A DNA stretch of 58,402 bases, counting the filler, from Jimgerdemannia flammicorona (lineage: Eukaryota), in the NCBI GenBank assembly GCA_003990765.1. It is 3 parts of 3 records of this genome, joined end to end, with 100 filler letters (N's around TTAATTAATTAA, not from the genome) between each part and the next. Parts side by side here need not be neighbours in the genome. Positions count along the whole stretch, not along the records: positions 1 to 19,404 come from RBNJ01001948.1; 2 more parts are not named here. One strand, written 5' to 3'. The notes beneath the pieces were generated by a model, which did not search any database, was not told the origin of the DNA, and saw only the letters and a program-made list of their open reading frames with translations. The first letter of the stretch is position 1, and each line of letters opens with the position of its first letter. The position numbers and the translations under genes are program-made. Positions 1 to 52,589 of this stretch are shown here, in pieces.

Positions 1-358
1 AAATTTCCAAAATCGGCAAATCAAAGAATTTCCAAAATCGGCGATTCAGACGGTTTCCTTCATAACTCAGCAACGCATGATCCGATTTCAATGTTCTTGG
101 TATCATTAGATAGGCCTTATTAAGGGCTTTCAAATGACACCAAGATCATCAAATTTGGATGATAATTCATCAAGTTATTGATGTAAACATTTAATTGTCT
201 AATTTGGAAATCAAAACAATGGTTGATTCGAATCCGATTCGAATCTGATTTGAATCCATCTGGATGGGATTCGAATCCCATCCGAGTTGATCCAGATGGG
301 ATTCAATCCGAATCAATCTGAATCCAATCCGGATTAAATTGACTCGTTAGGAGCACTA
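1..358. mobile_element. Terminus of a hAT-like DNA transposon (partial; other end outside window)
   Basis: Ends in ...TTAGGAGCACTA (351-358 GAGCACTA), the same terminus as the TSD-flanked MITE at 45969-46119; subterminal GATTCGAATC-type repeats at ~225-340; CpG intact, then abrupt switch to decayed integrase sequence. Confidence 0.6.
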
Positions 359-1366
359 CTACTGATGAACTCTTCACAGTCAAAGCTGTTGAAGAATTCC
401 TGCTCTGAATGTACAATCTAAGTCAGATCACAATTGAGAATTTATCGTGAGCTCAAGAACAATAGTCACAGTATATTAATAAATACTGCTGAGAAGAAAC
501 TTTTGACATTGGAGAAAAAGTTTTACTGAATATCTGAGGATACTGAGTTGACAACCTCAAGCACAGACCATCTATAAAGCTGAACAGCAAGTTTATTAGA
601 CCATTCAAAGTCATTATACAAGTCTCTCCTACTTTCTATAAATTGGTACTACCAGATACTATTAGGATTCACCCAGTCTTCAATGTCCAACATCTCAAAT
701 GATATAATGAAAATGACAATAAGCTATTCCTGAACTGAATCACAGAACCACCTGCACCTGTTATTATTAATGATCAAGAAGAATATAAAGTTGAATGAAT
801 TCTCAACAAATATAGCAACAAGAACTATCCTGAGTACCTTGTCAAATGGAAAGGTTATCTGATCTATAATGTAACCTGGGAACCTAAGACTAATCTCCAG
901 AATACCACCAACTTAGTTCAGAAATATAATTCCTTGAACAACTAAAACTGAATACCCTGCACCTATCAGTATATACTATATATTACCCTCCTGAACATTA
1001 TAATTATCACAAACAAAATCAAGAACTCAGCAAGTCAAGACAAAAGAATACTGATCCTCTAGAAAAAATAGCAAAACTGAAAGCAAGCCTATTCTCCTCA
1101 TACTACTGGTAGGAAATGAGGTATAAATATTTAAGAAGATTCCTTAGAGGAAATTCTCCAGTAGTAAATGATGTCAGAATCACTTCTGGTATATGACATT
1201 GAACACATGACCCTTTAATATGTGAATTCAATATATTAGGCAACTGTACTATAAGTATGCCACTTTCTGAGAAAAATAGACTTTACTGAACTTTTGACTA
1301 TCCAAATAGTATAAAACAAAATTAGAAGGCCCTGATGAGGATGTCAAAAGCTAAGAAGGGGAGAAT

Positions 1367-3417
1367 TGTAGCACACAACCTCTAAGCCACTAAAATTACA
1401 TGTTATCCTCTGAACAAGCCACTGAAATTACATATAACCTTTGAATAAATCTGAAAATCACATATAAGATTACAAAGCTGAGTCAAACCAAAGTTATAGT
1501 GCACAAAGCTGAGCCAATATGAGGTTACAGAACACAAGATTTATACAAACAGAATCTTACCAATCAAGACCAAATACATATATACCAAGTATCAAGATAC
1601 ATTGAAACAGAGAACCAAAACAAACCAAACAAACAACCCCAACTCCTGAATATATACAAACATGACCACCAAGATCTACAACTGCATCCATGCTGACATT
1701 TGAAATGCCATTATCAACTAAGCCACACTCTCTTTGCTCCTTATGCATATCCATAGCTTAGCACCCCTCTACTTCATAGAAACCTGATGAAATGTCCTGA
1801 ACATGCTTAGCAAAGTCCACCAAATCAGACAAATCTCAAGCTACTACCAGATCAGCCACCTCCTAGAAGACATGATTGAATATCACCATAATACAGATAT
1901 TACTCAAATGTCTCAACACTAGAAACTCATTGCCCATAAATATCAAGAACTATAGTACTATTATCCCCCACCTCTGAGTTACTACTACTAAAATGGTTGC
2001 TACCCTGTCCTATGACCAAATTGACAATATGATATAAGAACTAACTATAAGTATATTGAGTATGTTCAGGCTATAGACAGAATCTTCCCACATTCTGATG
2101 ACTATATTTTGTAAATGCCTCAAGTTGGATATACTATAAAGGATATCTACAATATAATCTGATTTGATAAAGATGAAGCAGAAGACAATGATCCCTCTGA
2201 TGTCAATATGACCTCTAGCCAAGGATCTCTACTAACTCTGATCACTCCACCAACCTTGCTAATGAACTTACAACAGTTCATAACCACTTATAAGATCTAT
2301 TGGGACAATGACCACTGATATGAGTACCAATCCACATTCACTTCTGATTATTTCAACTATAATAAAGAGACTGGAGAATACAACCTATACCTCCAGACAA
2401 CCCTCAAGATTGAACCAACAACTCCACCATCTGAGTACAAGCAATATGAATCACAGCTACCAGCTTACTATAACCCAGCAACTCATAGTGCCATAACTTA
2501 TAGAAGGTATGCAGATAGTGAATCCAATGAAAGTGAAGATGATGTACTCTTCCTTCACTCACCAATGCCTTACTCAGCATATGAGACAGATGATGCTATT
2601 CTGTGGGATGGTGATGAAGTCCCAATATATTATTACCTCAGCAAATAAGAAGAATTAATCTGCAAACAACTCTTCCTAGATGACTACTTCATTAGAGATG
2701 ATGTCATTAATAGTGATATCATCAAAGACTACCCAGATAGCATCTAAATCTATAGATAGCTTAGCAGTCATAGTATAGTTAGATTAGTCTTGTACAATGT
2801 AACTGTGAACTGACTCAGCAGTCAGATGATCCCTTAATATGTCAGATCACACTTATACTACATGACTGCATTTTGATTCAGCAAAGCACTAAGTACTACA
2901 CCCATATTCAGCATAGTCCAGATAGCCCCTCACTAGTATAAATACCCCCTCTCTCAGACCTCAGAATCTCAGACTCAAATACAACATTTCTGAACACTTC
3001 CTCACAATATCCCTTCACACAACTACTCTTAGTATAGCAATATTATGAATAGTAAATAAACTTATTTAATAACTCATAAATTACTCTTAAGTAAATCTGC
3101 TCTCTGTTAGGTCCCACTCCTAACCCCATCATGAATTTTCCTAATTGGGTATTGTCTGCTGCAATATGCCAATTCAATTAAGCTGGTCTTAGTTTCTTGA
3201 ACTTTCTGAAATATAGAAAATTCTGAATATTCAGAACTAGTCCAAAAAAGGACTTTGGTTGAGACATTAACCCAATATTGAAATCATTAAACATAGAGGA
3301 TGTACTCCATATGAAATTGATCTTGACCTTAAGAAACAGTCTTTCAGAATATCCAGAACTTTAAGAAAACCCTTCCAGAACTATATAATGATTACCCTAA
3401 TAAGTAACCCTCTTACA
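1367..3417 (+). repeat. Family A LTR (3' LTR, ~2.05 kb)
   Basis: Begins TGTAGCAC right after the PPT, ends CTCTTACA; colinear with the reverse-strand copy at 22998-25047; TATAAATA box at ~2937. Confidence 0.9.
1662..2747 (+). pseudogene. Decayed ~361-aa ORF of unknown function inside the family A LTR (U3)
   Basis: ATG 1662 to TAA 2747 is one frame (362 codons) with about a dozen internal stops; several are sense codons (TGG, CGA, CAG, CAA) in the second LTR copy; Tyr/Asp/Glu/Pro-rich translation. Confidence 0.7.
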
Positions 3418-6400
3418 CAGGATCTTCAGAACTATTCAAATATGTTTGAGGTATTCTTCTTTAGTTATACTAAAGATCAGGATGTTGTCAAGATATATCA
3501 ACATAAAAATAAATAGTTAGCTTGTTCATCAGGGTCTGGAATGTAGCAGATACATTGGTGAGACCAAATGCTAAGACTAGGAATTTGTAGAGTCTAAAAG
3601 GAGTCATAAATATAGTCTTGAGAATATCTTCTAGCTTAATTCAGATCTGATGATATTCTGATATGAGGTTCAACTTGGTGAAGTACTTGGCATTCTTGAG
3701 AGCATCAAAGATTTGATCAATCAAGAGTAGCAGATAGTAGTTCTTGTCAGTGAGTTTGTTGAGTACACAATAGTCTATATATATTCACAGAGTACCATCC
3801 TTTTTCTTGACAAATAAGACTGGTGAGCCATAAGGATATTTGCTTAGCTGAATGACTCCTTGTGCAAGTAGTTCTTTTAGTTCCTTTTTAACTACTTCAA
3901 TTTTGAGTGGTGATATATAGTATATGTATTTCTTAGGTGGTATAGCTTCTGGGGTCAGTTTGATTTTGTGATCAACTTCTTATATAGGTGGTAGGCCAGG
4001 TAGCTTGTCTAGAAAGACATCCTTGAATTCTTCTAGCAGTAACTTGATGCTTTCATTGACTGATAGTCTCTTGTCTTATTTCTTAGAACAGACCATTATA
4101 ATAAAGACATACATTGCCTTCTTGAGTGCTCTTTTGTACTGTATAGCTAACAGTATTGCAATCTGGGTCTTATTTGTAGTCTTGTCTGTCTTGATAGTAA
4201 TGTTGGCTCCATCTTGAAGTAGGGTGACTTCATTCTTATATCAATCAATATCTGGGTTGTATTTCATAAGCCAGGGTTTTTCTAGGATCAGGTCATGATC
4301 TCCTAGTAGTGCAATCTTGAAGTCTACTTGTTTCCAATATTTCTAGATCTTGATGGATAGTTTGGTGGCAATTGACTCAATGGAGTGTAGAGTACCATCT
4401 GCAGTGACTATACTATTGTTCTTAGGTGCAGGCTTGATAAGAATCTTGAGACTTTCAATGAGATTCTGATTGATAAAGTTCTCTATAGCTCTACTGTCTA
4501 TGAGTACTTGAACTTCTTTTTCTTTAACAAGGCCTTTGAAAATGAGCATAGCTTGAGCTTGATTTTCACTAAGACTTACTGCTTGATTGGTGCTATCAAA
4601 ACCTTTTTGGTCTCATTTGGTTTCAGAGAGTTCTTAGACTTCTGTAATCTTGAGTTAACTGGCTTTTTCTAGGATTATTTGCATGACTCAGTCTCCTTTC
4701 TTGACTGTATAGTCTTGATCCTTCTGGTTGATAAGCAGAACTTGAACTTGTTCTTGAAAGTCTGAGTCAATGATACCAGTACCTATATCTAAATAATATT
4801 TGACACTGAGTCCTGATTATAGTGCAATTCTAGTATAATGTCCTTCAGGATATTGAACTGTAATTCTAGTAGACACTAGAGTTCAGCTCTTAGCTGGAAT
4901 AGTGACTTATTTGACTAAGTATAGGTCAAGACCAAAAGCTCTTTCTGTTTGATATGGAGAAGCCTGGGCCTTCAGGTGAAGCTTCTTGATCTTGAGCTTA
5001 GGTTGACTGGTGGTGGGGTTGACAGATGTGTCCTTGAACAATATGGTGACTTGTCTTAAGAGTTTGCTAGTCTTCTTAGGATATTTGGTTACAATATGTC
5101 CTATTTGGTGACAGAAGAAACAGACTCCAGATTTCTTCAGACAGTCCTTTTCTTCAAGAGTGAGCTTGGTATTCTTTTTGTTCATAGTGTTCAAATCCAT
5201 TGATACTGGACCAACTGTCCTTGGTTGGTTTCTGTAGCAGTTCTCAAAGTGGTTCTTCTTATAGCATTCTGGTTCAAAGCAGTTACTAAAGGTAATGATA
5301 TCAAACCTATTGGTAATTCTCATAGCTTCATCAAGATTTTTGGACTCTTCTAGTACAACCTTGACTCATGTATTTCTCATCAGACCTCAGACATAGTGAT
5401 CTATCTTTTCATCCTCAGAATTGCTAGTAGCTCAAGTAGAATTAATAAGAATTATATATTGTAGCTTTATATAGACTTGAGTTACTTGATATTTACTAGC
5501 TTATCTCTGGCTAGCTTAGTAGTATTAGCAGACTTGAACTGCTTGTGAAGGGCTCTCTTAAAAGCTTTCCAGTCTCTGATTTATATATATAAGTATATGG
5601 ATATAACTATGATATGATTGTACCACTAGATGGCTGTATTTCCTCAGAGAAGTGTGGTGGCAAATTGGACTTGCATGTCTTCTTCCATTCTTGTAAGCTC
5701 AAAGTATTAGTCCAACTAGAAGGTCTGTGCATCTGTAGATAGTTCTCCTTGATGACTATCAAAGGTATCTGACTTGAGTGATTTGAAACTAACTAGTGCT
5801 ATAGCAGAATATGATGTACTCAACAGTTCTTGTTTTCTGCTGTTCTAGTTGTACTTGAAGTTCTTGGATTTGGTGGGCCATGGTATTGATCATATCCTTT
5901 ATACTGTGCTACAGTCCTCCTGCTTCTTCTGTAATAAAGGGGTCTGGCTGGTAGGCTGACTCTTTGCAGCTCATTTCAGATTCATATGACTAGTTATGAC
6001 TGATTTCCAAATTTATGTGAAGTTTCTAATAAGATAAGATATAATAATACTATTGCTACCAAGTATAATAGTTTTAGTTTCTTTAAGAGGAAGCAGCTAA
6101 GTCTGGAAGTTCTAATTGATCTAAAGTGGCTCAAAGAGATACTTAAAGGATTTCTGGGAGAAAAATATTCTCAGCTTTATTTAGGTAGAAAACAAGGATA
6201 TTTATATATGATCTGAAAGAAAGATCCAGAAGGATCTTGGAAAGAAAGAGAAATACCAAGAATAGGTTCTCAGTAAAGATGACTAATATAGTTCTACAAT
6301 GTTTCAAAAGGTTCTATAACTAGCTAAGATAAGATGCTTAGTACTAAGAAAAGACAAGAGTATTCTAGTAGTGTCTGGACACTGAGAGAAGATTTCTAAA

Positions 6401-17922: not shown

Positions 17923-19373
17923 TTAATTGACGAACAAGTTGACGGTGTTTCCTCCGCCGCGGGCCTCGAACGCCATCTGGACGTCGTCGTCCGAGTTAAT
18001 GGTGATCATGTCCCCGTCCTCATCCTGATACTTGATGCGTAGAAGACCGGCGGTCGCACGCGGATCGCCGCACAGACGGATCTTCTTCTCGACCTTCTCC
18101 ATTAGATCCTGATACTCGACTTCCTGAGGAACGACAATCACGTAAATGCCGTCGAAGAAGTTGAGCTTCAGCTTGATAGACCCGGGCGAGTTGGGCGCCG
18201 TCGTGGAACCGGCCTTCCCATCCTGTTGCATCGCCGTCGAATTAAGTTGCGGGTTGGACCCAGAGGGGCGAACGGTAAACTGCTCGCGCATGTTGGAACC
18301 GTTGCTGTATCGCGAAGCAGAGACGCTGGCCTCCGTAGGGGCAGGCCCGCCGGTCGGGATGTATCCATTGTTACGCGGAACCTCGGGGGTCGGTTCCCAT
18401 GGCGCCATGCCGCTGTGGCCGTGGCCGTGACCGTTGTGACGATGGATGTTTGGGCTGCTCTGGGACCTAAGGCGCGTCTGGGCCGCATTGGGAAGCGGCG
18501 GCTGCTGACCGTTCTGGTACATGGGGTGGCCCATGTTCGCCTGAGAGGCCAGGGATTGCGAGTGGGTCCGTGTGGGTGCGGGTGGGTACTGTCGGTACTC
18601 TTCCGTCGGCGTCGTCGCGCCCTCGGGTGTCATCATGTATTTGAGGACCGTATCCGACAGCGGGGAAGACTGCTGCTCGTTGCGGGCCCACACTTGGTTG
18701 GAGCCGGAGCTGCTAGTGGAGGCGCGCGCGGAGGTCGTGGGCGAGGACGGGTTGGATGGCGGCGGGGAGGCTGGGTAGAAGCCATAGTCTGTCGCTGTCG
18801 AAATGGTCGTCGATGACGAGGAGTTGGTCCGCGGGAGCGGTGGGAGCGACATGCCACCGGGGAAGCCGACCGGGTGAGATCTACTGGGACCATTGGGCAT
18901 CGGCGGCGTTGCGGTCCTATGGTGCGACGATGACGAATACTCGCTGTCGCCCTGGGTGCGCGGGCGCTGCCTCACCGGTTGGCCATGCCCGTTGTTTGCC
19001 AAAGCATGCAACGAATTGCTCCGCTGCTTAGCTCCAGACCATCCTCCATCATACTCTTCTTCCTCATCGTAATTGTCCTCCTCCTCCTCCTCCTCCTCTT
19101 CTTCCCCACTCTCTATGAATGACGCTGCGTCATCGTCGTCGTGGTATACTCGAGGAGCAATGTTGAAGGAAGCGAGAGAGCCCATCGTCGTGTTCGATAC
19201 GTTGCGCCTGGGAGGCATCTGTGTGGCGTTGCCGTTCGACGACGGATTCTGCGAATCCTTGAGAAGTTTGTTTAGTGTAGACTCCCAGAGCTTAAGCTGT
19301 TCCTCATTACGGCATTTCAATGAAAACGATTCCATCTCGGAGTCGCGCCAGAACACCTTTAATGACCACACAC
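17923..19373 (-). CDS. CDC24: Cdc42 guanine-nucleotide exchange factor Cdc24/Scd1, last exon (PH-domain end, low-complexity linker, PB1 domain); upstream exons lost at the contig end
   Basis: 482-aa ORF: LKVFWR..ESFSLKCRNEEQLKLWE (PH end) and IKLK...IKYQDEDGDMITINSDDDVQMAF (PB1 OPCA motif); TTTTGTGTAG splice acceptor immediately upstream. Confidence 0.88.
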
Positions 19374-19504: not shown

Positions 19505-20559
19505 AAAAAAAAAAAAAAAAAAGAGATCGTGGTAGTCAATGCACATTCACAGGTCTCCTCTTTTTTTGACAACAAAGAGGACCGGTGCACCATAGGGTGA
19601 TACACTGGGTCTGATGAATCTTTGTTCTAGGAGTTTGTCAATTTCTTTCTTGAGTGCATCGATTTCTCTCAGAGACATGTGATAAATTGACTTGAAGGCT
19701 GGTTTGGTATCTGGGATAGTCTTGATAGTATGGTCTACCGCTCATTTAGGAGGTAGGCCTTTCAGGAGTTTCTTTGGGAATATGCCTCGAAATTTCTAGA
19801 GTAGTGGTCTGACACAGCTGTCAACTTTGAAAAAATCTTCTTCAGAGTTCTCAGGTTCTCCTTTGGATGGGCAGATGGAGATGATAAAGAGAGGGTATTT
19901 CTTGGCCAATTTCTTAAGTTGTAGCTTGTTGATGTGGGTGATCTTTGGTCCAGGGTTACCAGAATTAAGTGGGTCCTTTTCGTCTTGCAGTTTGAAGTTG
20001 TGGCATCCTTTCTTGATGGTCAGAGAATGGTTTATCCAATCAATCATGGGGTTCTCTTGTTTTAACCATGGAGTCCCAAGGATGATTTCATTGTCAGGAA
20101 GTGGTATGATTTGGAGAGTAACATGTACTCGGTAGTCACCAATTTAGAAGAGTAGATTGCGGACTTCTTTGCTAATAACATGTGAGGTTCCATCAGCTGT
20201 AGCAACTGCTTGAGTTTGCTGTACTGGAGAGGTGAAGACCTTGAGTCTGTTGGCTGTCTCTTCATTGATGAAGTTGCCTGAGGCACTACTATCTATTATA
20301 ATCTTGACAGATGCTCAGTTGACAAAAGCCTTAAGTGTGAGCAGTTTGTCTGATCCAATGGTGGTGATTTCAGTTGTAGGAACTTTCCTTCTATTAGTTC
20401 TTCTTTGTGCCAGTTCATTGACACAAGAGAAGCAATCATCAATTATTCGAGAAGAGTACATTCCAATGCCATGAGGGCATCAGCCACTTGGTACATATCT
20501 ATCTTCGATCTTCTTGTAGAATTGTTTTTCTTTGCTCATAGTAGGTTGGGCTGGAGCCT

Positions 20560-20975
20560 TATTTGATGAGCCAAATCCTTTAGATCCTCAGATGGTGGAC
20601 AGTAGTTCAGGGACTTCCTTGACTATCAGGATTGACTCGATTTTTTCGAATAGAATCTGAGTGATGTAGAAACCAATAGGGATCTTGAAGAGTGTCCAAC
20701 TGTGGTTTTGGATGAGGACAATAATTTCACCTGTATAATCCTCATCAATGACTCCTGCTCCTACTGAGAGTCCTTTCAATGCTAGGCTGCTGTGACAGCA
20801 TATTCTTTCAATATGTCCTTCAGGGATTTAGATACTGATTCCTGTGTAGACTTGTTTAACTTCTCGGTTGGAAACTGTAGCTTCTTCGGCTACATACAGG
20901 TCATATCCAGCTGCTTTCTGACTTCCTTTAGTTGGGGCCTTAGCAGTTTGTCTTAACTTGACAAAGTCCAGTATT
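20560..20975 (-). pseudogene. dUTPase domain of family A
   Basis: KAAGYDLY, SSLALKGLSVGAGVIDEDYTGEI, ITQILFEKI and C-terminal (R)GSKGFGSS motifs. Confidence 0.92.
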
Positions 20976-22997
20976 CTGGTAGTCAGGTTGTTGAGATGTT
21001 GCAGAGTGATAACAGTTGCTTATGTTGCTGTTCAGGGTTTTTGGTTAGAACAGGCACTGGCCATGTATCCTGTCTTTCAGCAATAGAAGTATGCTCCACT
21101 TCTTTGAAGTTCATTCCTTTCACCTTTGGTAAGTTTCTTAAAGGTACTTGGCTGGGTGGGTTCATAATTTCTAGGTGTCCAAGAGGTGGATATGGAGGGA
21201 GCTCAAGATCTTCATACTTGGGTTCTTCTTTCTTGGTCCAAGTCTTTTCCTTGTTGTTGAATTGTCTTTGGGGCAGAATTGGTCCAGCTGTTAGGATTCG
21301 CTTGACTATAGTCTTGATTCTTGCCAGGTACCATTATTGGTGATCACAACCAACTAGGCAGCCTTGTTCTTGGATTTTTCTAGTAAGCCATTCAGGCAGG
21401 GCATCAAATAAATGGTCTGCTCTTGTACCATTTCGTGCTTCATCATTGGCGATATATCCTAGGCCAACAGTATTCAGGAGTGACTCGAGTTTTGTATAGA
21501 AGGTTTCGAATTCTTCTTTGCCATGTACATCAAATTTGAGATTGCAGAGTTTTACTTGAGATTTGGCAATCATTGTTTCACTGCAGTATTGAGCAATCAT
21601 GAGTTGTTTAAGTCCAGGGGCTGCAGGATGGGCTCTATATCCTGGGGCATTGTTTGCTGCATTCTGAGCAACTACTACAGGTCGGGTATCCCATGTGAGG
21701 GGTTTTTCAGGAAGAGTTTGCCACCATTCTTCAGCAGGTCCTTGGAAGAATGTAACAACTCAGTGGATATAGGCTGTAGTGGTAGCAAAGAGTTGTTCCA
21801 GAGTGTGGTCTTGATTGTTTGTCAGAACATGATCAGCAACTTGCTTATTAGTCCATTGATTGGCTTCGAAGTTGGTGTCAACTATACTAATGAAGCTTTG
21901 GACTTCTTGTGCAGTACCATTGAAGGTAGGTAGGCTCAGATTTTTGGTAGATTGGGTCTGTTCAGCTAAGGCAGTAATGGTTGCTGCCATTATGGCTACC
22001 TGGACTGTGAGGTCTAGAATCTGTTGGTTCACCATATTGTTTACTGGAGGCAGTTGGACTGCTGGTAGTGGTGTTACTAGTACTACTTGAGGTACTGGTG
22101 CAGAGTGTGATGGGGTTCTTTGGGTCTGTGTAAGTTGCTGGAGTAGTAGTTGTGGGTCTGGAGTGAGGGCTTGATAGATAACTATTTATTGCTATGTAGG
22201 TGTATTCTGTCCTGATGGAGGTACTTCTCCTTCGGTGGTATATCTGGGATTGAATTCACTGAGATACTCCTTCTCTTCTTCAGTTTGGTCCCCGTGTAAT
22301 TGGGTTTGCTCGGCATCAAAGTAGACAGAATCAGTTGTATATCTGATTTCAGATGGACTTAATTCAAAGTCAAGTTCAGGTTTGGTATTGGTTTCAGATT
22401 CAGGTAGGGCTGTAGCAGGGCCTGCTTCAAGTTCAGAGTCAGGTAGTTGATGAAGGGTTTCTCTTGCTTCTTCTTTAAGAATATGGTGGGCCTTGCTATT
22501 CTGGAATTGGTAGTATAATGCGGTCTTGGTTCTGGTATGGTGAAAGTTGGTAGAGTTGAGCCACTTGGCTACAGAGGCTTGGGCTTTGTGAGGAACTAAG
22601 GCTAGAAAGACTGCTGCTGGTTATCCTAGGTTGCTTGGATTAGTGGAGCTGACAAAACTCTTATTGAGAAGAGTAAAGAAGGCTTCAATAAGATCTTCTT
22701 TGTCTTGACTTGCTGGGTATAGTGCAAGGAGTTTAGTGAATAGAGTTTTACCTATTTGTTGGTTTAATTGGAGTACTTCTTTCTTTGAATGAAGTTTGTC
22801 CCACTTGTTACAGGTGTGGAGGTCAAATTGTTCTTGTATGTCAGGTTCAATTCTCTCCAGATTGTCAGATGGTTCAGGATAAATTCCAGTTCAGAGGTTG
22901 GGCTTTATACCAACTTGTAGGAATTTGCAGAGGGGTTTATAGTGGGATGAGGAAGTGTCTTGAAGTAGAATTGGATTGTAAACTGCTGCTACCAAGT

Positions 22998-25047
22998 TAT
23001 AAGAGGGTTGCTATTTAAGATAACCATTATGTAGTTCTAGAAAGGTTTTCTGGAGGTTCTGGATATTCTAGAAGACTGTTTTCTTATAGTCAAGATCAAT
23101 TTCGTATGAAGTACATTCTCTATACTTATTGATTTCAAGATCGGGTTGATGTCTCAACCAAAGTCCTTTTTCAGACTAGTTCTGGATGTTCAGATTTTCC
23201 ATATTTCAGGAAGTTCAAGAAACTAAGACCAGCTTAGTTGAATTGGCGTATCGCTGCAGACAATACCCAATTAGGAAATTTCGTGATGGAGTTAGGAGCA
23301 GGACCTAACAGGGAGTGGATTTACTTAAGAGTGGTTTGTGGATTATTAAATAGGTTTATTTGCTATTCATGATATTGCTATACTAGGAGTAGTTGTGTGG
23401 AGGGATATTGTGGGAAAGTGTTCAGAAATGTTCTTGTATGTTCGAGTCTGAGATTCTGAGGTCTGAGGGAGGGGGTATTTATACTAGTGAGGGGCTATCT
23501 GGACTATGCTGAATATGGATATAGTACTAAGTACCTTACTGAGTCAGAATGTAATCATGTAGTATAAGTGTGATCTGATATGTTAAGAGATTATCTGACT
23601 GCTGAGTCAGTTCACAGTCATGTCATATAAGGCTAATCTAACTATACTATGACTGCTAGGCTATTTATAGGTTTAGGTACTGTCTGGGTAGTCTTCAATG
23701 ACATCATAATCAATTGTATCATCTCTGATAAAGTAGTCATCTAGGAAGAGTGGTTCGTGAATTACTTCTCCTTATTCACTGAGGTAATAATATATTGGAA
23801 CTTCATCGCCATCTCACAGAATAGCATTGTCTGTCTCATATACTGGATAAGGTGTTGGTGGGCAAAGGAGGGGTGCATCGTCTTCACTTTCATCAGATTT
23901 GCTGTCTGTATACCTTCTGTAGGTTATAGCACTATGAGTTGTAGAGTTGTAGTAAGCTGGTGGCTGTGGTTCATGTCACTCATACTCAGGTGGTGGAGTG
24001 GTTGGTTCAATCTCGAGGGTTGTCTGGAGGTACAGGTCATATTCTCTAGTCTCTTTATTATAGTTGAAGTAATTGGGAGTAAATACAGGTTGGTATTCGT
24101 ACCAGTGGTCATTATCCCAATAAGTCTTGTATACTGTTATAAATTATTGTAAGTTCATCAGTAAGATTGGTAGTGTGATCAGGGTTGGCAGAGATCCTTG
24201 ACTAGAGGTCATGTTGGTATCAGAGGGATCATTGTCTTCTACTTCGTCTTCATCGAAGTAGATTATATCATAGATGTCCTTCATGGTGTATCCAACTTGA
24301 GGCATTTGCAGAATATAATTATTGGGGTGTGAGAAGGTTCTGTCTGTGGTTTCAGCATACTTGAGGTACTTGTGGTTGAGTTCTTATATCATGTCGTTGA
24401 TTTAGCTATAGGACAGAGTAGCAACCATTTTGGCTGTGGTAACTCAGAGGCAGAGAATAATGGTAGAAGAGTTCTCGATATTTGTGGGTGATGAGCTTCT
24501 GGTGTTGAGACATCTGGGTGATGTCTGTATCGTGGTAGTATTTGATCATGTCTTCCAGGAGGCAGCTGATCTGGTAGTAGCTTGAGATTTGTCCAATTCG
24601 GTGGACCTCGCTAAGCATGTTCAGAGCATTTCATTGGGCTTCTATGAAGTAGAGGAGTACTAGACTATAGATATTCATGAGGGGCAGAGGGGGTGTGGCT
24701 CGGTTGACAATGGTATTCCAAATGTCAGCATGGATATGGGTTTAGATCTTGGTGGTCATGTTTGTGTGTTTGAAAGTTGTAGTTGTTATTTGTTTTGATT
24801 CTCTGATTCGACACATCTCAGTGCTTGGTATATATGTATTTGATCCTGATTGGTAAGATTCTGTTTGTGTAAATCTTGTGTTCTGTAACTTTGTATTGAC
24901 TCAGCTTTATGCACTGTGACTTCAGTTTAACTCAGCTTTGTAATCAAACAGGTAATTTCCAGATTTGTTCAGAGGTTGCATGTGATTTCAGTGGCTTGTT
25001 CAGAGGGTGACATATAATTTCGGTGGCTTGGAGGTTGTGCGCTTACA
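22998..25047 (-). repeat. Family A LTR (5' LTR, ~2.05 kb)
   Basis: Starts TGTAAGCGCAC on the minus strand, ends 3 nt before the PBS; homologous along its length to 1367-3417. Confidence 0.9.
23673..24759 (-). pseudogene. Second decayed copy of the LTR-embedded ORF
   Basis: Same ATG context (ACAAACATGACCACCAAG) and same end (..EDYPDST*); includes track fragment MLSEVHRIGQISSYYQ..; a few indels. Confidence 0.7.
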
Positions 25048-33600: not shown

Positions 33601-36600
33601 TTCCATTTTCCCACGGCCTAACGTTCGATTCTTACACTCTCTCCCCCTGTCGCCCCTCTTTCCCCCTAGGTACGTCGTCCGGCCACACAACAGCCCTGGT
33701 TTGCGAGACAATTACAGTTCTACTGCGGCGCTCGCCCAAATTCAAGGACGTTTTCCGTGAGGTCGGCCTCCTCAACGTCTTCTCCACACTTTTGTGCGAG
33801 CTCGCTGAAACGCTACAGGACGGCGTTGGGAACGTACAGTTTGTAAGGCGCATCTCTGTGTCCAACCTTGATCGCGCGAAGATGGAGAAGAAGAGGTTCG
33901 CGCAGGAAGTGCTCAAAAACTATGATATTATCATTGAATGCCTCGTCGAGCTGATGACGGGGAGTAGGATGAACGCCAATATGTTTAGGAAGTCGTGAGT
34001 GTCGAGGTGGCGGGGCTGGTTTTGTCGGGGATAAGGAATAAGGAAAAAGGACGTTCGTTTATGTTGTGGTTATTTATTATTTATGACTATTGAGAAAACC
34101 AAATTGACCTCATCTCCTTTGACTGTGACAGCTACCGCGGCAACCTCTTCGATTTAATGCATTACGACGAGACGCGCTATGGTGCCCTCAACCTCTTTGA
34201 AACGCTCGTGATTGAGGGCAGCTCGCTCAACGGGCTTCCACGCACCTCAACGAGCAGCATCTCCCCTTCCCGCAATAGCAGTGTCTCGAACCGCTCTTCG
34301 TCACCCGTAGAGAGCGGGTTTCAATTCGGCCGGCTCATTGAAATCGTTCAATCTCTGTCCCGCCAGGATCTGACCATGAAGATACAAATCCTCCGCTCCA
34401 TGAAGCGTATCTTCGTCGCCTGTCCGGAGCTCAAGGACGTGTTTAGGCATACGGGCGGATACGTTTGCCTCGTGTCTATGCTCGTCGGGCTTGAGGGTGT
34501 GTATGAGTCCATCGTGGCCGAGGAGAAGCAGAGGAGGAATAGCCAGAGTACGGAAAAAGAGAGGAAGGAGGAGGTGGAAGCAGAGGAGAAGGAAAAGGTA
34601 GAAATGGAGAAGGGGAAGGAAGCCGAGAAGGCCAAGATGGCAGAGCTGGAGGACGAGCTGTCCAAGGACCAGACGATCGAGTTGCTACGCGCCGTATTTT
34701 CGGTGCTGGCCGAATCTATGAGCAATCACGAATTCAACCGCCGATTCTTCACGGACCACATCGGGTTCCAATCCGTCGAGGACGCGTTAAGGCTCACGGA
34801 CGTGCTGGGCGTGCACGGGTCGCGCGAGTACATCTTTGGCATCCTGTTTGGGTTCGCGATTGGGAATGATGGGATATATGATCTCTTCGTTGAGGGACCT
34901 GAGGATGCTACACAGGAACCGAAGAGCGAAAAGGCGCCCGTCATTGTTACGAACGGGGCGAGGTCGACGGCGGCGTCGAAGGTTATTAAGAGGATTGAGG
35001 TTGTTTTGAAGGATCCGTCAGTCATATTGCATAATCCACAAGCTGTGCTAGCGATATTGAAGCTGCAGGATGTCGTGCGGCATGATCATAATCTGTCGTT
35101 GAACATTTATACAGCTCTCTTGTCGATCGCGTGGGCGAATCGAAGGAATCAGGTGTATCTGAATCAGAACGGTGTATTGATGGCGATCTTGGAGAGATTG
35201 TATCCGAAACGGCTTACGGAAATCGGTTATGAGGTCGATGGGACGGAGGCGGACCGGCCGAACGCAGCAGAGCTAGAGGTGCTGAACAAAATTTCAAAGA
35301 GGATCATGATGATGGGCGTCTCGTCGTGCGAGCTACGGTACCTGTTCGAGTGCTTCCAGGGCGACCACGCGGAGCTGGCGCCCATTGACGACCGGAAAGC
35401 GACAACGCTGATGGACATGCTGTTGTATGGCATCTCGCACAGCCGGTGGCCCAACTTCGTCCAGTTCGACATGGGCCCATACGGGCACTCGTCGCTCGAA
35501 ATGACCACCTTCGGTGCACGCCCGTTTCCGCCCTCAAATAATGGGTACACATTCATGACCTGGTTCCAGGTTGAGAGGTTCGACGAGAACCACAACCTCG
35601 GCCTGCTCGGCGTCCACGACGAAGAGAAGAAGTGCCAACTTAGCGTATTTATTGATGCGCAGACTCGAAGGCTCAATGTACAGACAAACCCAAAGTATCC
35701 TGCCAAGTTCGACGCGTTCGAGTTCCAGTCTGGGTATTGGTACCACCTCGCACTCGTCCATCATAAATCTCGCCTGTCCATCACTGCAAGCACCATCAGC
35801 ATGTACGTTAATGGTTCGTTTGTCGAGCAAGTTCGCTGCGCGTATCTGTCGCAGCCGGCACCCAACAACCGTGTCAAGGCCTTCTTAGGCACGCCACCGG
35901 AGCCGGAGGCCATGGCATCCACACAACCTAGCAACAACCTTGCCTGGGATCTGGGTCCTTGTTACCTGATGGAGGATGTGGTCGATCCCGACGTCATCAA
36001 CCTCCTGTTCAACTTGGGCGCACGCTATAGGTCCCTGTTCCAGGACTCGCTCCGCCAGTTCCAGACGTATGAGACGTCCACCATCCTCTACATGAGCCTC
36101 CGTGCCATCACCAAGGGTTTCGACAAGTCACAGGACGATCACACCACCTTTGTCAACGCCATGCGCGGCACTGGCGGCGCATCGCTACCAGAGGAGAAGA
36201 TCCTGTTCGCCTTCTTTGCCGGAAGCACTCTCACCGAGGGTACCAACTCGGGAATAGCGGCTACAGGTCTGTCGGATTCAGCACTGCACATGCTCGGCCT
36301 CGCTGCGCTCCACGGGAAGATGATCCTTAACGCCGCCGTGCCGAAGATTGAGGCTGCATTGTCGGCACCCGAAGGGACCGCCACGTTGATGGGTGATCCG
36401 GTTGTCGCGTATCCGAGCGGGCTGGATGATTCGATTTGGAAGATTGGAGGGTGCGCCGTCGCGTTGAAGCTGGTGGAGCGGGCCGAGGTGGGCGCGGTGG
36501 GGTGTTGGTTGGACGATGGTGGCGTCTGCGTGGTTTGATTGCTGCGTTGGTTGTTGTATTGTCGTGCTGACGTTTTGTTGTTTCGAATGTCGTTTGCAGA

Positions 36601-38851
36601 CCCCTTTGAGTCTGCACAAGGCTGTGGCCATCTTATTCGAGTTGGTCCGTTACAGCTGGCGGAACTCGGAGGACATGGAGCGGAATCACGGCTATGAGCT
36701 TCTCGCGTACCTCCTGAAACAGAAGCGGAATATGATCACCATCGACTTGCTTAACCTGATGCTCGTTTTCATCGGAAAGGATCCAGAGTTCCCCGAGTTA
36801 GTGCCCCTTCCTCGGTTTCTTTCTTTCTCTCCATGTCTCTCTTTACTTTCATGTTTAGCAATTAATGTATGTCCCGCAGGCAAGGACCATCTAAGCATCT
36901 ATACAAAACGCCTTTCTTCTTCTTCTAGAGAGTCTGTCATCAACAACCCCTTTGCCTATCGCTACTTGCTCATGAACTTTGACATCTGGAAGCGGACCGA
37001 CATCGAGGTGCAGCGCGCGCACTTGGAACAGTTTCTTGTCTTCATTCAATTGAGTAAGAAAAAGGCTTTTAACGTAAAGCGGTTGCTTAAAATGCGTACG
37101 TATATCAGATCTTACCCTATTTTTTTTTTTTTGGCACGTCTGGTTGGTTGGCGATTCGGCTCTAACCACAAGACGGATGTGGTTAAATAGATCTTGTCAA
37201 GAAGATGCTCCTTGCTTTGCGCGTGAATGTACCCCCAAAGGAGTTGATCCCTTCCTTCATCGCCGCTCTCAGGGCTGCGACGCTTGCAAATTGGAGTGTG
37301 GAGACGATCCGAGCGATAGCTACGTTTCTGGCCTCGACCATGGCGAAGCGTAAGTGAATCGGAGATATATTTGAGTTAAATTTTCTACATGGTACAACTC
37401 CGATCAAGTGAGATGCTCAATTTAATTGTTTTATAGCATCGGCCTATCGGAAACATGAATCTAGCCATAGTCGACCTCCCTTGTTTCGCAAGCGAAGTTC
37501 TACTGCAATTCCTCTTCAGACGGAAGACTCCGCCCCAGAAGCCAAGCCAAACGCTGCCGACGTCGTACCCGTCATCGTCACGGATGCAAAGACCACACAG
37601 ACCGAGAATGCTCCTAAGCATGTCGTTTTATGCAACATGGTGATGGAGATGCTCCATGACATACTCTGCGATAAGGCTAACAGCAGCCTCGTGTCCAAAT
37701 TTGCCAACACCATCACCAACAAATGGCCGCTACTTTTCTTTAGCGAAGATTCGAACCCTTACGCCGTTGTGCTCGCCTCCCGCATCCTTGCTCACCTGAT
37801 CGCTTCGCAAGGATCGATGTACATCTCCAAATTCCGCGTCGCATCAGAAGGGTTCATGGTCATGAGGCGGCTCCTGCCGCGCTATTGGTACCTCACGCAG
37901 CTCTACGGGACCTTGCTTGCCATTATGCTCGGGGTCGATATTGTCAATATTCCGCTCGATGCAAATTTCGACCTATTCACGTTGCTGACCATCTACAAGA
38001 AAGAAAATAATAAAAAAGAAAACACATCACAGCAGGGCCTAATCCTACCGGAAATTATGCCGATCATTTTGGCGCTGGTTAAGGAAGCGATCAACGTCGT
38101 GGTTCAACAGAGCGAGATATCCAAGAAACTCGGCGGCGGCGGCGGCGGCGGCGTAACCAATGGGCCACCAGCTCCACGGGAGTCGTTGTCATCGGTCGTG
38201 TCGGTCCCGGTGACGGATATCGACGAACAAAAGAAGCAAAGGAGAAGGTCGAAATCAATGGGTGATGTTGATACTCCTGAGGAGGTTCGAAAGCTCTCGG
38301 CGGAGAATATCGTCGTGGGTAAGCTTTCGGCGGTTGCTTCATCTCGCAAGTTCTAGTATTAATGACCCCTGGATGAGTAATCTAACGCAGACTCGATAAC
38401 GTACGACATTTTACTCTCTCTCCCTTGTAGAGAACATTAAGCAGCGCATCGCCAAAATCGCCCATGTGGAGCAGACTCTGATTCACTTCTTCTCCGACAT
38501 GTACACCCATTCGAGCGATTTCAAAGATATCTGCTGCAAACCCGAGGTGATCGATGTTATCGTCGAAATTCTCTTCCCGATCGTATGCGGTGCCGAAGAG
38601 TTGGCCATCGAGGCCGAGCTTTATTCCAAAGACAGCGTTCTTACTTTTGAATCGGACCTTGTCGATTCTAACGGCACGGAAACCAGCTCGGTGATAGCTG
38701 CAACTATATCCGACGAGCCAGGAAGCTTGGATGAAGGAGAATCGCCCCTTCCGCCGCGGTCGGATAGCCCACTCAGGCGCGGGAATACATTCGTTCTTGT
38801 AACAAAGACTTCTCCGCATTCAATCAAAAAGTTACCGGCTATGGTGAAGAG
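30636..38851 (+). CDS. BEACH-family protein (Bph1/LvsA/ALFY-like), N-terminal portion; multi-exon, truncated by the contig end
   Basis: Helical N-terminus, ConA-like lectin region (GYTFMTWF...WYHLALVH...MYVNG), DUF4704-type LDDSIWKIGG...RNSEDMERNHGYELL...LLMNFDIWK; many GT-AG introns. PH/BEACH/WD40 domains are not in the window. Confidence 0.85.
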
Positions 38852-39210: not shown

Positions 39211-39245
39211 TATGTACACGGGTCGGCTCGGGTTGCGATGCACTA
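39005..39245. mobile_element. Terminus of a young hAT-like DNA transposon with subterminal CGGGT repeats
   Basis: Ends ...GGGTTGCGATGCACTA (TAGTGC- on the other strand, like the other two hAT-type ends) and abuts gypsy integrase mid-domain; CpG intact. Confidence 0.6.
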
Positions 39246-40642
39246 CCTACAATAACGCCAACCAATCATCAACTGGCCTTTCCCCATTCCAGCTACTTCA
39301 CAGTCAAAATCCCAAGACCCCTGCAAGCCTAGTCCAATTCCAGCAATCCCGTCACACTCAAGTCCCCACAGCCCAGAACCTTATTGACAAAATGGATTCT
39401 CTTCTCAAGATTGCCACTATGAACCTACAAAAGGCTCAGCAACATCAAGCTAAGTATGCAGATAAGAAGTGGCAAGATATTATATACAATATTGGTGATA
39501 TGGTCCTACTCAAAGCTGACAACATCAAGGCTCAATCTCAAGTCAACTGCCAGTCAGCCAAATTCCAGCCCAAGTACCTTGGACCCTTTGAGATCACCGA
39601 GCAAGTCTCCACCTGGTCTTACCATCTCAACTTGCCAACAACCATGCATATACACCCAGTATTCTATATATCACAACTCAAGGCCTGGAACCAGTCACCC
39701 CTATACCCTGGCCAAATTCTGACACCATCAGCATCAGTCATAGTTGAAGACCACATCAAGTATGAAGTCAAGAATATCTTAGACAAATGAGTTTGATACC
39801 ATCACACAGAATACCTAGTCAAGTGGATGGGTTATCCTGAATATGATGCCACCTGGGAACCTGCCACCAATCTCAAGAACTCCCAAGACCTCATCCAAGA
39901 GTTTGAGCAAAAAGGAACTCATTGACTGCCCGTGAGGTTCTCCCCTTGGATAGTAGATAACCTACTGTACTGATCAGGCACATTATGCATCAGGGCTCTC
40001 TAAGAGATACAGTATCAGAAATAAGAGATATAGGAAAACCCTATAAATCCTACAACCAACAAGGTTTGAACCAGTTCTCATTCAATCAAGATGATACTTT
40101 GGCCCTCGCCTTATACAAGGATAGCCCTTCCTTGCTAATGAGTTGATACATTTAATTTGAAGTTTCTTTTAGTCTTTTTGTTTATTATGTATAACTTTGA
40201 GAATTCAATGAGGATGTTGATTCTTAAGAAGAGAGAGATGTAACATTTTAGCATAGTTTATTTCTTTTCTTTGTCTTTCTTCAATATTCTATGATCTTCC
40301 AGTACTTTCTGAATGCTTAGAAATCCTTTCTTGGTATCAAGCAACCTCTAGTACTTATTTAGCTAGTCACTGAATGTCCTGGAAACTTGTAGAACTTTAT
40401 TTGTCATCATTTGTCATCTTTGCTGAGAACTTTCCTCTTGGCATTTTCCTTTGATTTCTCAGATCCTTCCAGATCCTTCTTTCAGATCTTGTATAAATAT
40501 CCCCTTTATTCTCATGAATAAAGTCTCAGAATATTTTCTTCCAGAAATTCTTTGAGAATACTTGAACCCTTAAGTATCTCTTTGAGTTACTTAGAACCAC
40601 TAGAACTAGTCACTTCCTTATTTAGAAACTAGAACTGTTACA
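39246..40642 (+). mobile_element. Ty3/gypsy family B-related element, 3' part (integrase C-terminus, chromodomain, PPT, LTR 40239-40642)
   Basis: YNNANQSSTGLSPF...YLGPFEI...HPVF...YEVKNIL...YLVKWMGYPEYDATWEP..NL; PPT AAGAAGAGAGAGA; LTR TGTAACA...TGTTACA similar to family B LTRs. Confidence 0.92.
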
Positions 40643-48359: not shown

Positions 48360-51300
48360 ATGCCAGGCTGAAGTAATACCTTTCACTGGTAACATTCAGG
48401 TGATACAAGACTCAGACAATACTTTTTAAATGTTTTTAGTGAAAGGAGACTATCAATATAGATAGCAATGAATGTACTGGTAGGTATGTCAGCTAGGGGG
48501 GCAGCAGTGCCTTCAACTGACAGCATGTTGGGAGGAGATAGAGAGATGGTTTGGGGATACCAGGGCCTTCTATGGTTGGCCAAGGCATTAGTAGTGGAGG
48601 GAGGGGTGGAGTGAGGCAGTAAGGAGGGGGGAGGATGACCTTTGCTGATAAGGTCAAGATGGGGAGAATGAAATCTGGTCTGGATAGTTGGTTGGGACTG
48701 GGGAAGGTTTCAATGGCTTCAATTGAGAGATAGGGAGGGGCCCCTATGGGAGGGTTGGGCAGTAGGGAGGGGGGGGGAGGAGTAGGGGCTGGAGATGTGA
48801 CTACTGATGGAGCTGTAACTAGAGATCTGGAAAAAAAATCCAGATGTGATAGTTGTTGGTAGATCAGGACAGAGGGTGGGCATGAGGCCTGGGGATGTAG
48901 CAGATGGTATAACTGGCATAGTGTCAGCACCATTACTCAAAAAGTCAAGGTTGGAATTTGCCATCACATTGTACTTCTGAGGCTTAGTGGTAACTGCAAG
49001 GATAATTTTAGAGCTAGTGGCACAGGAGATAAAGGGGGCAGCTTTGGTGAAGTTCTTGAAGGGGAAAGAAGGGATCAAGGTTAGATTTGAGGAGAAGGCA
49101 TCAATGTTGGAGACTATGAAGAGGGGGGTAGTAGTGGGCAGAGTGGTGGTTCCTATGATCAGGTGCATGCACTGGGACCCCCAAGTGGTGCAGTTGATGG
49201 TGTTGGACCTTCTTACAGTGTCGAGGGAGAGAGCCAGAGAGTTGATTGTAGAGGTGATCAAGGAGTATAGAGAGATCATAGACATAGAGTTCAGAGTCTG
49301 GGAGAGTACTGAACTCTGGACAGGAGATGTTGATGTCAGAGTGAGGCTGGCTAGAAGAGAGAATACAGAGAAGGTGAGAGACTGGCTGGTAACTCTTAAG
49401 TGGAAACTAGTGGAATATAAGGTCTCATGGGTGAAAGGGACACCAGAGGAAGAGAAGGACTTATTGGAGGCTCTTGAGGATCTGGCAGGAGCAGTGGAGA
49501 GGAGGAGATTGGCTTAAAAAAAGTATGATGCTAAGATAGTTGTGGAGATTGTGGATGAAAAGAAGATCAGGATGGACCAGGAGGCCTGGGAGAAGGTGCA
49601 GGGAGGCAAATCCAGAAGAAGCTATTGGAGAAGTTGAGAGGGGGTGTAGCAGGTGGTGGTACAGGAGAAGGGGATGCCAGACTGATGGAGAGTGCTTGGG
49701 CAGGGGAGTGTGGGATAGCTCAGGATGTGGCCCAGGGTGGATTGAGTGAGAAGAGACTGGGCAGTATAGTGGAGGATGCCAAAATGGATGAGAAAGTCCA
49801 CCCTCAGTATAGCATCCCAAGTAGGATAGGTGGGGAGGAGAAACTACTAGATATATTGGAGAAGGAGTGGGAGGAGTTAGGGAGGAGGAGCACTTTAGTG
49901 GACTCTGTGGTAGAGGTTGAAGGAGTTGCCCAGGGTGTTGTGGAAGCAGTGAATGAAGAGAAGTAGCTGTGGAAGACTCTGGAGGGGGTGATAGCTGAGA
50001 AGCTAGGGGGAGAGAACTTCTGGGTCCTAAGTGATAGAAATTGGGAGGAAATTCTCCATAGGGAGAAGATATTGAGAAAGATTAGAAATGAGATCCTAGC
50101 AGTGCTCTTAGAGTTGGAGGAATACCAAGTGGATGATCAGAGAGAGGAGGCCCTTTGAGGGATTGCAAATAACTGGATAGAATACTTGTGAAATTTGAAA
50201 AAGGGGTTGGAGAAGTGGAGAGTGGTATGCATAGATTATCAGGCAGAAATAGAGATTGTGGATGGGGTGGAGTATCAGGAAATCTTAGAAGCACTAGATG
50301 CTCAGGCTGTAGTAGAGGGTGAGCTAGAGGCAGAGCAGTGCTAGATCTTGCTGGTGATGGAATAAGCATGGAATTCTAGACTGGGCCCCCAATATCAAAT
50401 ATTATTCAATATGAATAGTATAACTAGAATCTTTTCTTTGAATATGAATGGGTTGAGGGGAGCAGTACAGTATAGAAATATATTTGGCTAGTTAAAGGGA
50501 CTGGATGTGGATCTCTTCTTACTATAGAATGTGTGGTATGAGGTTGATATTGATTTGCAGGACTGGACTAGAGAAAGGGGTGAGGCAGTGGTATAACTGG
50601 GTGGGTGGGCATTCTGGTTTGAAAAGGGATGGGGGACATTGGGGATATTGAGCATTGGGGGAGTAGGTTGGTGTGAGGAGTATAGAGAGGCCTTGGTGGA
50701 ACCCTTTGACTGTTGGGTCATATTATTGCCCAGCTGAGAGGGAGGAGTGCATAGATTGGTTCAGAGACTTAAGAGAGGCTGGTGTTATGAGTGGGGCAGG
50801 AATTGACTGCCTGGGAGGAGATTTCAACATAGTATATAATAATGGGGTAAATAGGACAGATAGTGGGAGAGAAATGAGAGGTAGAAGTAGTGGATTGGAT
50901 GATTGGATGGAGATTGAGAGATTGAGCTCCTTGGTTGACTCAGGGCAACAGTTTTGGGTGGATTACCAAATTTATACTCATTGGGTAGTAGGGCTGGGCT
51001 TCAGGATTGACTGGGTGTTGATAGTGGAGTGCTGGGGAGAGAATGTCTGAGACACACTAGAGGTGGTTTGGTGCCTGTGGTCGGATCACTGGGGTCTGAT
51101 AGGAAGTGGGAGATTTTGGGGAAGTGGGGATGGGCCTGGACATTGGTGACTGAATTCTTCTTTGTTGGAGGATAGTTCTTTGTAGATAGACTGGGAGGTG
51201 GAAATTATTGAGAAGATTAGTAGGTGGCAGGAGCAGGTATTGGTGATTAGGGCTTACTGATGGCAGCTGAAATCAAGTGCTCAGAGGTACTGGAGGGAGG

Positions 51301-52588: not shown

Positions 52589-52589
52589 A

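Follow-up and report, generated by a model that had tools for sequence, protein, structure and literature searches.

Can the long terminal repeat (LTR) of a retrotransposon hold a protein-coding gene of its own? The question is raised by a 2.05-kb repeat in a 58,402-nucleotide stretch of DNA from Jimgerdemannia flammicorona (NCBI GenBank assembly GCA_003990765.1), which we analysed at its full length, filler included, and refer to as the window. The repeat is present twice, as copy A (1367–3417, + strand) and copy B (22998–25047, - strand), and an earlier note on this DNA had proposed that it is an LTR whose U3 region hides an open reading frame (ORF) of about 360 codons, running from ATG 1662 to TAA 2747 in copy A. 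Our analysis indicates that the U3 region of this chromovirus LTR probably does carry a real, family-specific protein gene of about 361–365 codons, which has decayed in both window copies.

ATG 1662 and the TAA at 2745–2747 are both present in copy A, and the noted frame between them (1662–2747) contains 13 internal stop codons besides the terminal one. Copy A alone is unremarkable in this respect, with 14 stops in the claimed frame versus 16 in one of the reverse frames over the same interval. As the earlier note had maintained, it is the comparison of the two copies that carries weight. Stops common to both copies occupy only 4 of the 459 codons of the claimed frame between 1368 and 2744; from 2745 onward they occupy 18 of 224 codons. 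Each of the other five frames of the LTR has 24–44 shared stops per 683 codons. The longest run free of shared stops is 210 codons in the claimed frame versus 58–135 in the other five. Base composition is also uneven across codon phases within the ORF, both in its N-terminal part (p = 1e-3 in copy A, 3e-5 in copy B) and in its C-terminal part (p = 3e-8 in A, 6e-9 in B). No significant unevenness was found in the flanking parts of the LTR (p = 0.74, 0.98, 0.43 and 0.09); that is, three-base composition periodicity is limited to 1662–2744.

The second line of evidence comes from database relatives. A profile of two read-through translations, searched against 5.8 billion clusters, matched two predicted proteins, which we call P0001 (E 8e-86) and P0002 (E 9e-46). 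HMMER, run without an index on 1.84 billion representatives, gave three matches, namely P0001, P0002 and P0003; the last was rejected as a relative, being a bacterial inverse autotransporter matched on a repeat. P0001 is a stop-free protein of 247 residues from a 998-nucleotide (nt) contig; it covers the C-terminal two thirds of the window ORF and has the same ..YPDSI end. P0002, annotated ‘hypothetical protein’, has 128 residues, comes from a 1180-nt contig and covers the N-terminus, with the same MTT.. start at ATG 1662. P0001 is a truly diverged relative: of the 230 columns aligned, there are 73 in which it differs from A as well as from B, and at 57 of these 73 A and B are identical to each other. 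A better profile brought in no further homologues, and scans for the DNA of P0001 and P0002 yielded 295 and 462 pattern matches in metagenome_contigs and 466 in viral_contigs, with no confirmed match in any of the three.

With these relatives in hand, the stops themselves become informative. At every one of the 17 distinct positions where A or B has a stop, one or more of the other three sequences among A, B, P0001 and P0002 has a sense codon, and for the four stops common to A and B the aligned residues are W, R, Q and N. We also used a sequencing run (X1), of DNA type and labelled soil metagenome, which contains 10% of the searched words and from which 2572 short contigs match window positions 1–3600 at 80% or more. 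At the stops of copy A at 1701, 1920 and 2112, every covering contig has a sense codon, among the 40 differences listed out of 366. The summed depths of this run over 1–3600 are in the hundreds to thousands, so some organism in the sample carries the family at high copy number.

Because of the two database proteins, the shared-stop contrast and the periodicity limited to 1662–2744, the conclusion that an ancestral protein-coding sequence occupies 1662–2747 is well supported. This bears out the earlier inference of an ancestrally open ORF of about 360 codons that is missed by ORF lists. An extension of the ORF 5' toward the polypurine tract, from in-frame ATGs at 1336 and 1342, was considered and rejected: there is no periodicity in 1367–1661, P0002 starts at ATG 1662, and a 2-nt A/B indel at 1650–1651 and several X1 indels in the same segment also speak against it.

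We then placed the reading frames by tblastn of P0001 and P0002 on both copies, with the following result.

1662–1958, + strand: N-part of copy A, 99 codons with 6 in-frame stops; residues 1–96 of P0002 align to 1662–1949 at 68% identity
1960–2042, + strand, +1 frame: middle part of copy A, 27 codons with 2 stops; residues 100–128 of P0002 align to 1948–2034
2043–2747, + strand: C-part of copy A, 234 codons with 4 stops, ending at TAA 2745–2747; residues 18–247 of P0001 align to 2043–2744 (57%, E 2e-81)
24463–24759, - strand: N-part of copy B, 99 codons with 2 stops; residues 1–102 of P0002 align to 24759–24454 at 76% identity
23673–24461, - strand: middle and C-part of copy B in one frame, 262 codons with 7 stops plus the stop codon; residues 1–246 of P0001 align to 24428–23679 (E 7e-83)

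From about 1959 to 2042 of copy A, the protein is in the +1 frame with respect to the one originally noted; ATG 1993, which corresponds to where P0001 starts, falls in this middle part, and a 1-nt deletion ends it. The deletion, at about 2042, is private to A, since B has an extra base at 24378 and 10 X1 contigs continue like B among those listed. Copy B switches frame at 24454/24467, where 14 bases are matched twice by P0002. At the junction of the N- and C-parts, P0002's copy is 11 nt longer than either A or B, and because of this difference the two parts are out of frame with each other in both window copies. The statement that copy A runs from start to stop without a frameshift therefore did not hold: its single unbroken frame is a coincidence of two offsets, the N/C offset and the private deletion. 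The shared stop at 2013, which had seemed to support the noted frame, sits in the wrong frame.

The differences between A and B comprise 307 transitions, 33 transversions and few indels. At inferred ancestral CpG sites, 82–84% differ between the copies; copy A retains no CpG (60 expected) and copy B retains 22 (73 expected). C before A and C before C also often differ (0.39 and 0.31, respectively). The decay is of a methylation type or of the repeat-induced point mutation (RIP) type, and such C>T/G>A change turns CAA, CAG, CGA and TGG into stop codons. Counted in the true frames, copy A has 12 stops (6 + 2 + 4) and copy B has 9 (2 + 7), most of them produced by this C>T/G>A decay with its concentration at CpG, and both window copies are pseudogenes. 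Divergence is lower 3' of the ORF (11–13%) than in the ORF part (18–20%).

Is the repeat an LTR at all? Copies A (1367–3417) and B (25043–23000) align end to end over 2053 columns with 82.9% identity, and the features around them are as follows.

1353–1365, + strand: polypurine tract, AAGAAGGGGAGAA, directly 5' of LTR A
1367–3417, + strand: LTR copy A, a 3' LTR, with TGT at 1367 and ACA at 3415–3417
511–930, + strand: 3' end of pol of LTR A's element, with an integrase SH3 domain (Tf2-1 type) at about 511–705 and a chromodomain at about 784–930
22998–25047, - strand: LTR copy B, the 5' LTR of a further copy that is partial and lies on another contig piece, identified by alignment to A and by its primer-binding site
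22983–22994, - strand: primer-binding site, TGGTAGCAGCAG, two bases past the end of LTR B
19506–22982, - strand: internal region of copy B, cut at an N run, with gag, dUTPase (about 20564–20944), aspartic protease and the start of reverse transcriptase

Because the polypurine tract and the integrase end flank A, and the primer-binding site and gag-dUTPase-protease flank B, the two repeats are a 3' LTR and a 5' LTR, respectively. The earlier assignment of LTR status, which relied on the two flanking signals, is confirmed by the purine run at 1353–1365, by TGGTAGCAGCAG at 22994–22983 and by the end-to-end alignment. Pfam domains agree with it: PF24626 (1.1e-13) followed by PF00385 (9e-12) lie upstream of LTR A in the frame 1 read-through translation, and the internal region of copy B has the dUTPase family PF00692 (9.5e-26), PF13975 and PF08284. 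The dUTPase of LTR B's element is placed between gag and protease, at 20564–20944 on the - strand. Of pol, copy A shows the end of integrase alone and copy B stops at the first residues of reverse transcriptase; reverse transcriptase proper, RNase H and the integrase core lie outside the window. The chromodomain at the C-terminus of integrase is characteristic of chromoviruses, and the TG...CA ends, the polypurine tract before the 3' LTR and the primer-binding site after the 5' LTR are those of Ty3/gypsy elements. The 2.05-kb repeat is a genuine LTR of a dUTPase-bearing chromodomain Ty3/gypsy element.

We considered whether A and B could be the two LTRs of one element and rejected this, as their 5-nt flanks are unlike (no target-site duplication) and their pieces are separated by N runs; we treated them as separate insertions, which is not proven. 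These runs, each split by a short AT palindrome and with homopolymer A/T on one side, stand at about 19.4–19.5 kb and 38.9–39.0 kb. They look like artificial contig joins, so that the window is probably at least three pieces, and the 98% inverted repeats I11–I17 are these same runs. Because of the joins, distances and orientations across them, those between LTR A and LTR B included, are meaningless, and B's element is cut by a junction, not by biology. The earlier note put this LTR at 4–5 times the length of the others in the window; the other repeat families of the window that could be LTRs are 206–279 nt long. Two more dUTPase-bearing gypsy copies, unrelated to this one, are found on the minus strand of 3.4–16 kb; these showed no nucleotide similarity to the internal region of copy B (E 1e-8).

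Where the ORF lies within the LTR determines how it could be expressed. Two features matter here.

2937–3060, + strand: main LTR promoter and R region, placed by motifs (TATAAATA at 2937–2944, AATAAA at 3055–3060)
1477–1584, + strand: putative promoter-like module, with two GCTGAGTCA-like motifs (1477 and 1508), CCAAT motifs and TATATA at 1579–1584

The ORF lies wholly between the start of the LTR at 1367 and TATAAATA at 2937, with the U3/R border inferred from motifs; it starts 295 nt past the LTR start and ends 190 nt before the TATA box. The earlier placement of the ORF (1662–2747) upstream of the TATA box at about 2937 (2937–2944), and hence in U3, was thus correct within the limits of a motif-based border. 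Lying upstream of the TATA box, the ORF is missing from the 5' end of the genomic RNA but is carried at the 3' end.

In the mechanism that we propose, the gene would sit at both ends of each copy of the element and be duplicated with the LTR at each transposition, and its product would be an accessory protein of the element that acts in trans. Two routes of expression can be envisaged. The gene could have a second promoter, situated within the first 300 nt of U3, giving an mRNA 3'-coterminal with the genomic RNA; candidate signals for this are the two GCTGAGTCA-like motifs, CCAAT and the TATATA about 80 nt before the ATG, with the transcript ending at the AATAAA of the R region. Alternatively, it could be expressed from a spliced subgenomic RNA. 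The GCTGAGTCA-like nonamer recurs in inverted orientation at 2811 and 2874, before the main TATA box, and copy B has all four GCTGAGTCA-like sites at the corresponding places. We weakly favour the gene's own promoter over splicing, and the predicted second promoter in the 5' part of U3 suggests that each LTR could be a complete transcription unit. The sequencing-run search turned up no RNA run among those listed as containing words of the element.

The predicted protein has an unusual composition. P0001 contains 46 D+E versus 10 K+R, 23 Y, 24 P and no Cys in its 247 residues. The maximum Kyte-Doolittle hydropathy over 19 residues is 0.97 and 0.57 for the two parts of the protein, so there is no membrane-spanning segment. 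AlphaFold modelled the N-part as all-helical with a predicted local distance difference test score (pLDDT) of 50 and the C-part as unstructured with a pLDDT of 30. We describe the N-terminal region of about 125 residues as helical with low confidence, and the tail of about 235 residues as strongly acidic, Tyr/Pro-rich and probably disordered. A tail of this composition would at least fit an adaptor or an acidic activation domain. Pfam has no family for P0001 or P0002 at E up to 1, a PDB sequence search gave no chain below E 0.4, and the Atlas returned only unrelated hypothetical, phage and plant-virus clusters, with a recognition of 2273, under the 2300 mark. By these searches the protein is an orphan with no relatives outside the element family, and its description as a putative uncharacterised accessory gene is reasonable; the roles suggested for it earlier, as a silencing antagonist or host-interaction factor, are speculative.

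A gene wholly inside an LTR is textbook only for retroviruses such as mouse mammary tumor virus (MMTV), whose sag is the classic ORF inside U3 and encodes a type II membrane glycoprotein. Like the ORF described here, sag lies wholly within U3 and is duplicated with the LTR, and both have about 320–360 codons. The likeness does not extend to the protein: no sequence homology to the Sag or Nef families was detected (Pfam, E up to 1; PDB, none below E 0.4), and whereas Sag is membrane-anchored, the U3 protein has no hydrophobic segment and so is neither Env-like nor Sag-like. It is also strongly acidic, the host is fungal-type, and the element is a Ty3/gypsy chromovirus and not a retrovirus. Lentiviral nef and spumavirus bel/bet are accessory genes 3' of pol/env that reach into U3 and are expressed from subgenomic RNAs or an internal promoter; in contrast to the ORF here, which the periodicity and the ATG shared with P0002 place entirely in U3, they start upstream of the polypurine tract and overlap U3 in part, and no homology to them was found. 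LTR retrotransposons are known to have extra genes between their LTRs, and Cer1 of C. elegans has an extra ORF, CERV.

Additional ORFs (aORFs) of plant elements, the ORF0 of Retrosat2, RIRE3 and RIRE8, and CERV are likewise lineage-restricted extra ORFs without outside relatives and of unknown or regulatory function. Rice Retrosat2 shares with our element unusually long LTRs, of more than 3.2 kb, but its ORF0 lies outside the LTR, between the 5' LTR and gag-pol (PMC3485330). A plant aORF review contains none of six phrases that would denote an LTR-internal ORF (PMC7264820). Fungal Ty3/gypsy elements with both an integrase chromodomain and a dUTPase are described from Postia placenta (PosPlaTy3), Phanerochaete chrysosporium and Tuber melanosporum (Tmt1), and in PosPlaTy3-3 the dUTPase precedes the protease at the N-terminus of pol, as in LTR B's element (PMC2864245). 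A figure legend of the same paper mentions an ‘additional ORF with unknown function’; the text excerpted from it gives no location for that ORF and describes no 2-kb LTR or LTR-internal ORF (PMC2864245). Full-text matches listed for ‘LTR ORF’ are almost all on MMTV, and those for similar phrases are MMTV papers or unrelated usages; a limited search of partial texts, which is not proof of absence, found no account of any LTR retrotransposon with an ORF within its LTR. The combination of chromodomain and dUTPase has already been described for fungi; what is unusual here is that the accessory ORF lies within the LTR and that its product is an orphan.

Several observations weigh against a single intact gene of this kind. 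The raw A–B substitution counts at codon positions 1, 2 and 3 are uneven (72, 41 and 92; chi-square p = 6e-5), but they follow the numbers of C/G sites at these positions (195, 128 and 201), and the rates per mutable C/G site (0.34, 0.30 and 0.40) do not differ significantly (p = 0.13), so that comparing A with B yields no direct evidence of purifying selection. The cluster and representative searches found no protein of about 360 residues and no intact full-length copy, P0001 and P0002 each being partial. In neither window copy do the N- and C-parts share a frame, and the frame of the C-part is dense in stops common to A and B upstream of 1873; because of these two facts, P0002 is the one source of the single-ORF picture. 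Both A and B have a stop at codon 2035, which is also where P0002 ends; this means either three parallel mutations or a real stop in this sublineage. As for the promoter, the whole window has 19 of the GCTGAGTCA-like motifs where 12.4 would be expected, which is no significant excess, and the sequence had already been seen when the promoter was proposed. Neither AlphaFold model is confident, which makes ‘helical’ and ‘disordered’ weak statements. With regard to selection, A–B divergence stems mostly from decay after insertion and is of little help; what speaks for constraint is the frame of P0001, which is open over 247 codons in a diverged relative and differs in length by only two gaps of two codons each, all in frame, as expected for a coding gene.

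How, then, should the frame break common to A and B be read? The native form may have been two overlapping ORFs or a programmed +1 frameshift, with the single frame of P0002 arising from a secondary 11-nt duplication. In that case there would be an N-protein of at least about 117 codons, starting at ATG 1662, and a C-protein of 251 codons, starting at ATG 1993 in the +1 frame. A and B have the same frame offset on different contig pieces with unlike flanks, P0001 starts at a methionine that is the first C-frame ATG in both, and bases 24467–24454 of B are matched twice in P0002, as they would be if P0002's copy had undergone a tandem duplication. Among the X1 entries listed (12 of 16 indels and 6 of 185 loose ends) there is no 11-nt insertion near 1959, while the 1-nt difference at 2042 is present; the insertion could nevertheless be among the remaining X1 entries. 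Frameshifting has precedents in Ty1 and Ty3, where gag and pol are joined through a +1 shift. On the other hand, P0001 may begin where it does simply because a gene caller chose that start on a 998-nt contig, we identified no slippery site, and the data fit just as well if the ancestor of A and B lost one of two direct repeats. We consider the two-ORF or frameshifted form a distinct possibility, on balance not the one we would choose, and the native gene may have been either one ORF of about 365 codons, as P0002 would have it, or two overlapping ORFs, perhaps joined by +1 frameshifting, as A and B would.

A different objection is that the ORF could be a passenger: part of a gene, from the host or from a foreign source, that was captured into U3, decays neutrally and has no role in the life cycle of the element. 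The lack of a significant codon-position difference in A–B substitution rates would fit this, as would the shared frame break, given that the source may have transposed with a broken ORF. The summed X1 depth is 1708 in the LTR 3' of the ORF (the last 650 nt) versus 475 in the ORF part, about 3.6-fold, and LTR variants without the ORF could exist, with the reservation that X1 depth is not copy number and that the high-depth 3' part is also the less diverged one. The same depths cut the other way when the ORF part (475) is compared with the 3' end of pol (249): the ratio of about 1.9 is what is expected with two ORF-bearing LTRs per element. No homologue beyond the two LTR-like relatives was found in the 1.84 billion representatives, hence no known donor gene, and P0001 has stayed open over its whole length at about 30% protein divergence with in-frame gaps only. 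We regard a passenger as unlikely. Still less credible, to the point of being very improbable, is the idea that there was never a gene and that the open-looking frame is a by-product of an A/C-rich, G-poor sense strand combined with C>T/G>A change, which can explain any stop. The sense strand is indeed G-poor (264 G in 2051 nt of A), which lowers the frequency of TAG and TGA, and the similar stop count of a reverse frame in copy A is what one would expect under this idea. It is contradicted by two independent predicted proteins that match the ORF with the same start and the same end, by the low density of shared stops in the ORF compared with the stretch just downstream in the same frame, and by phase periodicity that is found inside 1662–2744 only.

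We therefore return to a family-specific U3 gene as the preferred reading. A gene borne on an LTR is doubled in each copy of the element, remains in solo LTRs and can be expressed without the element's main promoter, which changes how the family could interact with its host. A bolder form of this proposal is that each LTR is a self-contained gene with its own U3 promoter, an ORF of about 365 codons and the poly(A) signal in R, such that full elements and solo LTRs alike would express a trans-acting, acidic and largely disordered protein that serves the family and is possibly read with a +1 shift. We offer this form as speculation and rather doubt that it holds in full. If true, the protein could activate the LTR promoter or engage host chromatin or silencing factors, and a Ty3/gypsy retrotransposon would then have a U3 accessory gene in the manner of retroviruses. 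There is also a practical warning: lists of ORFs miss real genes in repeats decayed by C>T change, and the distinction between shared and private stops recovers them.

The rest of the window contains host genes and other mobile elements. A Cdc24-like C-terminus (PH_10 and PB1 domains) occupies 17926–19371 on the - strand and ends at the first N run, and a BEACH/neurobeachin-like N-terminal region (Arm_4, Laminin_G_3 and DUF4704) occupies 34157–38353 on the + strand and likewise ends at an N run; the nearest Atlas clusters are mostly ascomycete, and these host genes point to a fungus. Just past the second N run, another ORF with an integrase SH3 domain of the Tf2-1 type (39212–39787, + strand) belongs to a further gypsy element. 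The last part of the window, 49000–58402, has a very strong excess of G over C on the + strand (GC skew 0.37–0.55 at about 50% GC) and contains non-LTR retrotransposon domains, Exo_endo_phos at 54844–55392 and RVT_1 at 56715–57392.

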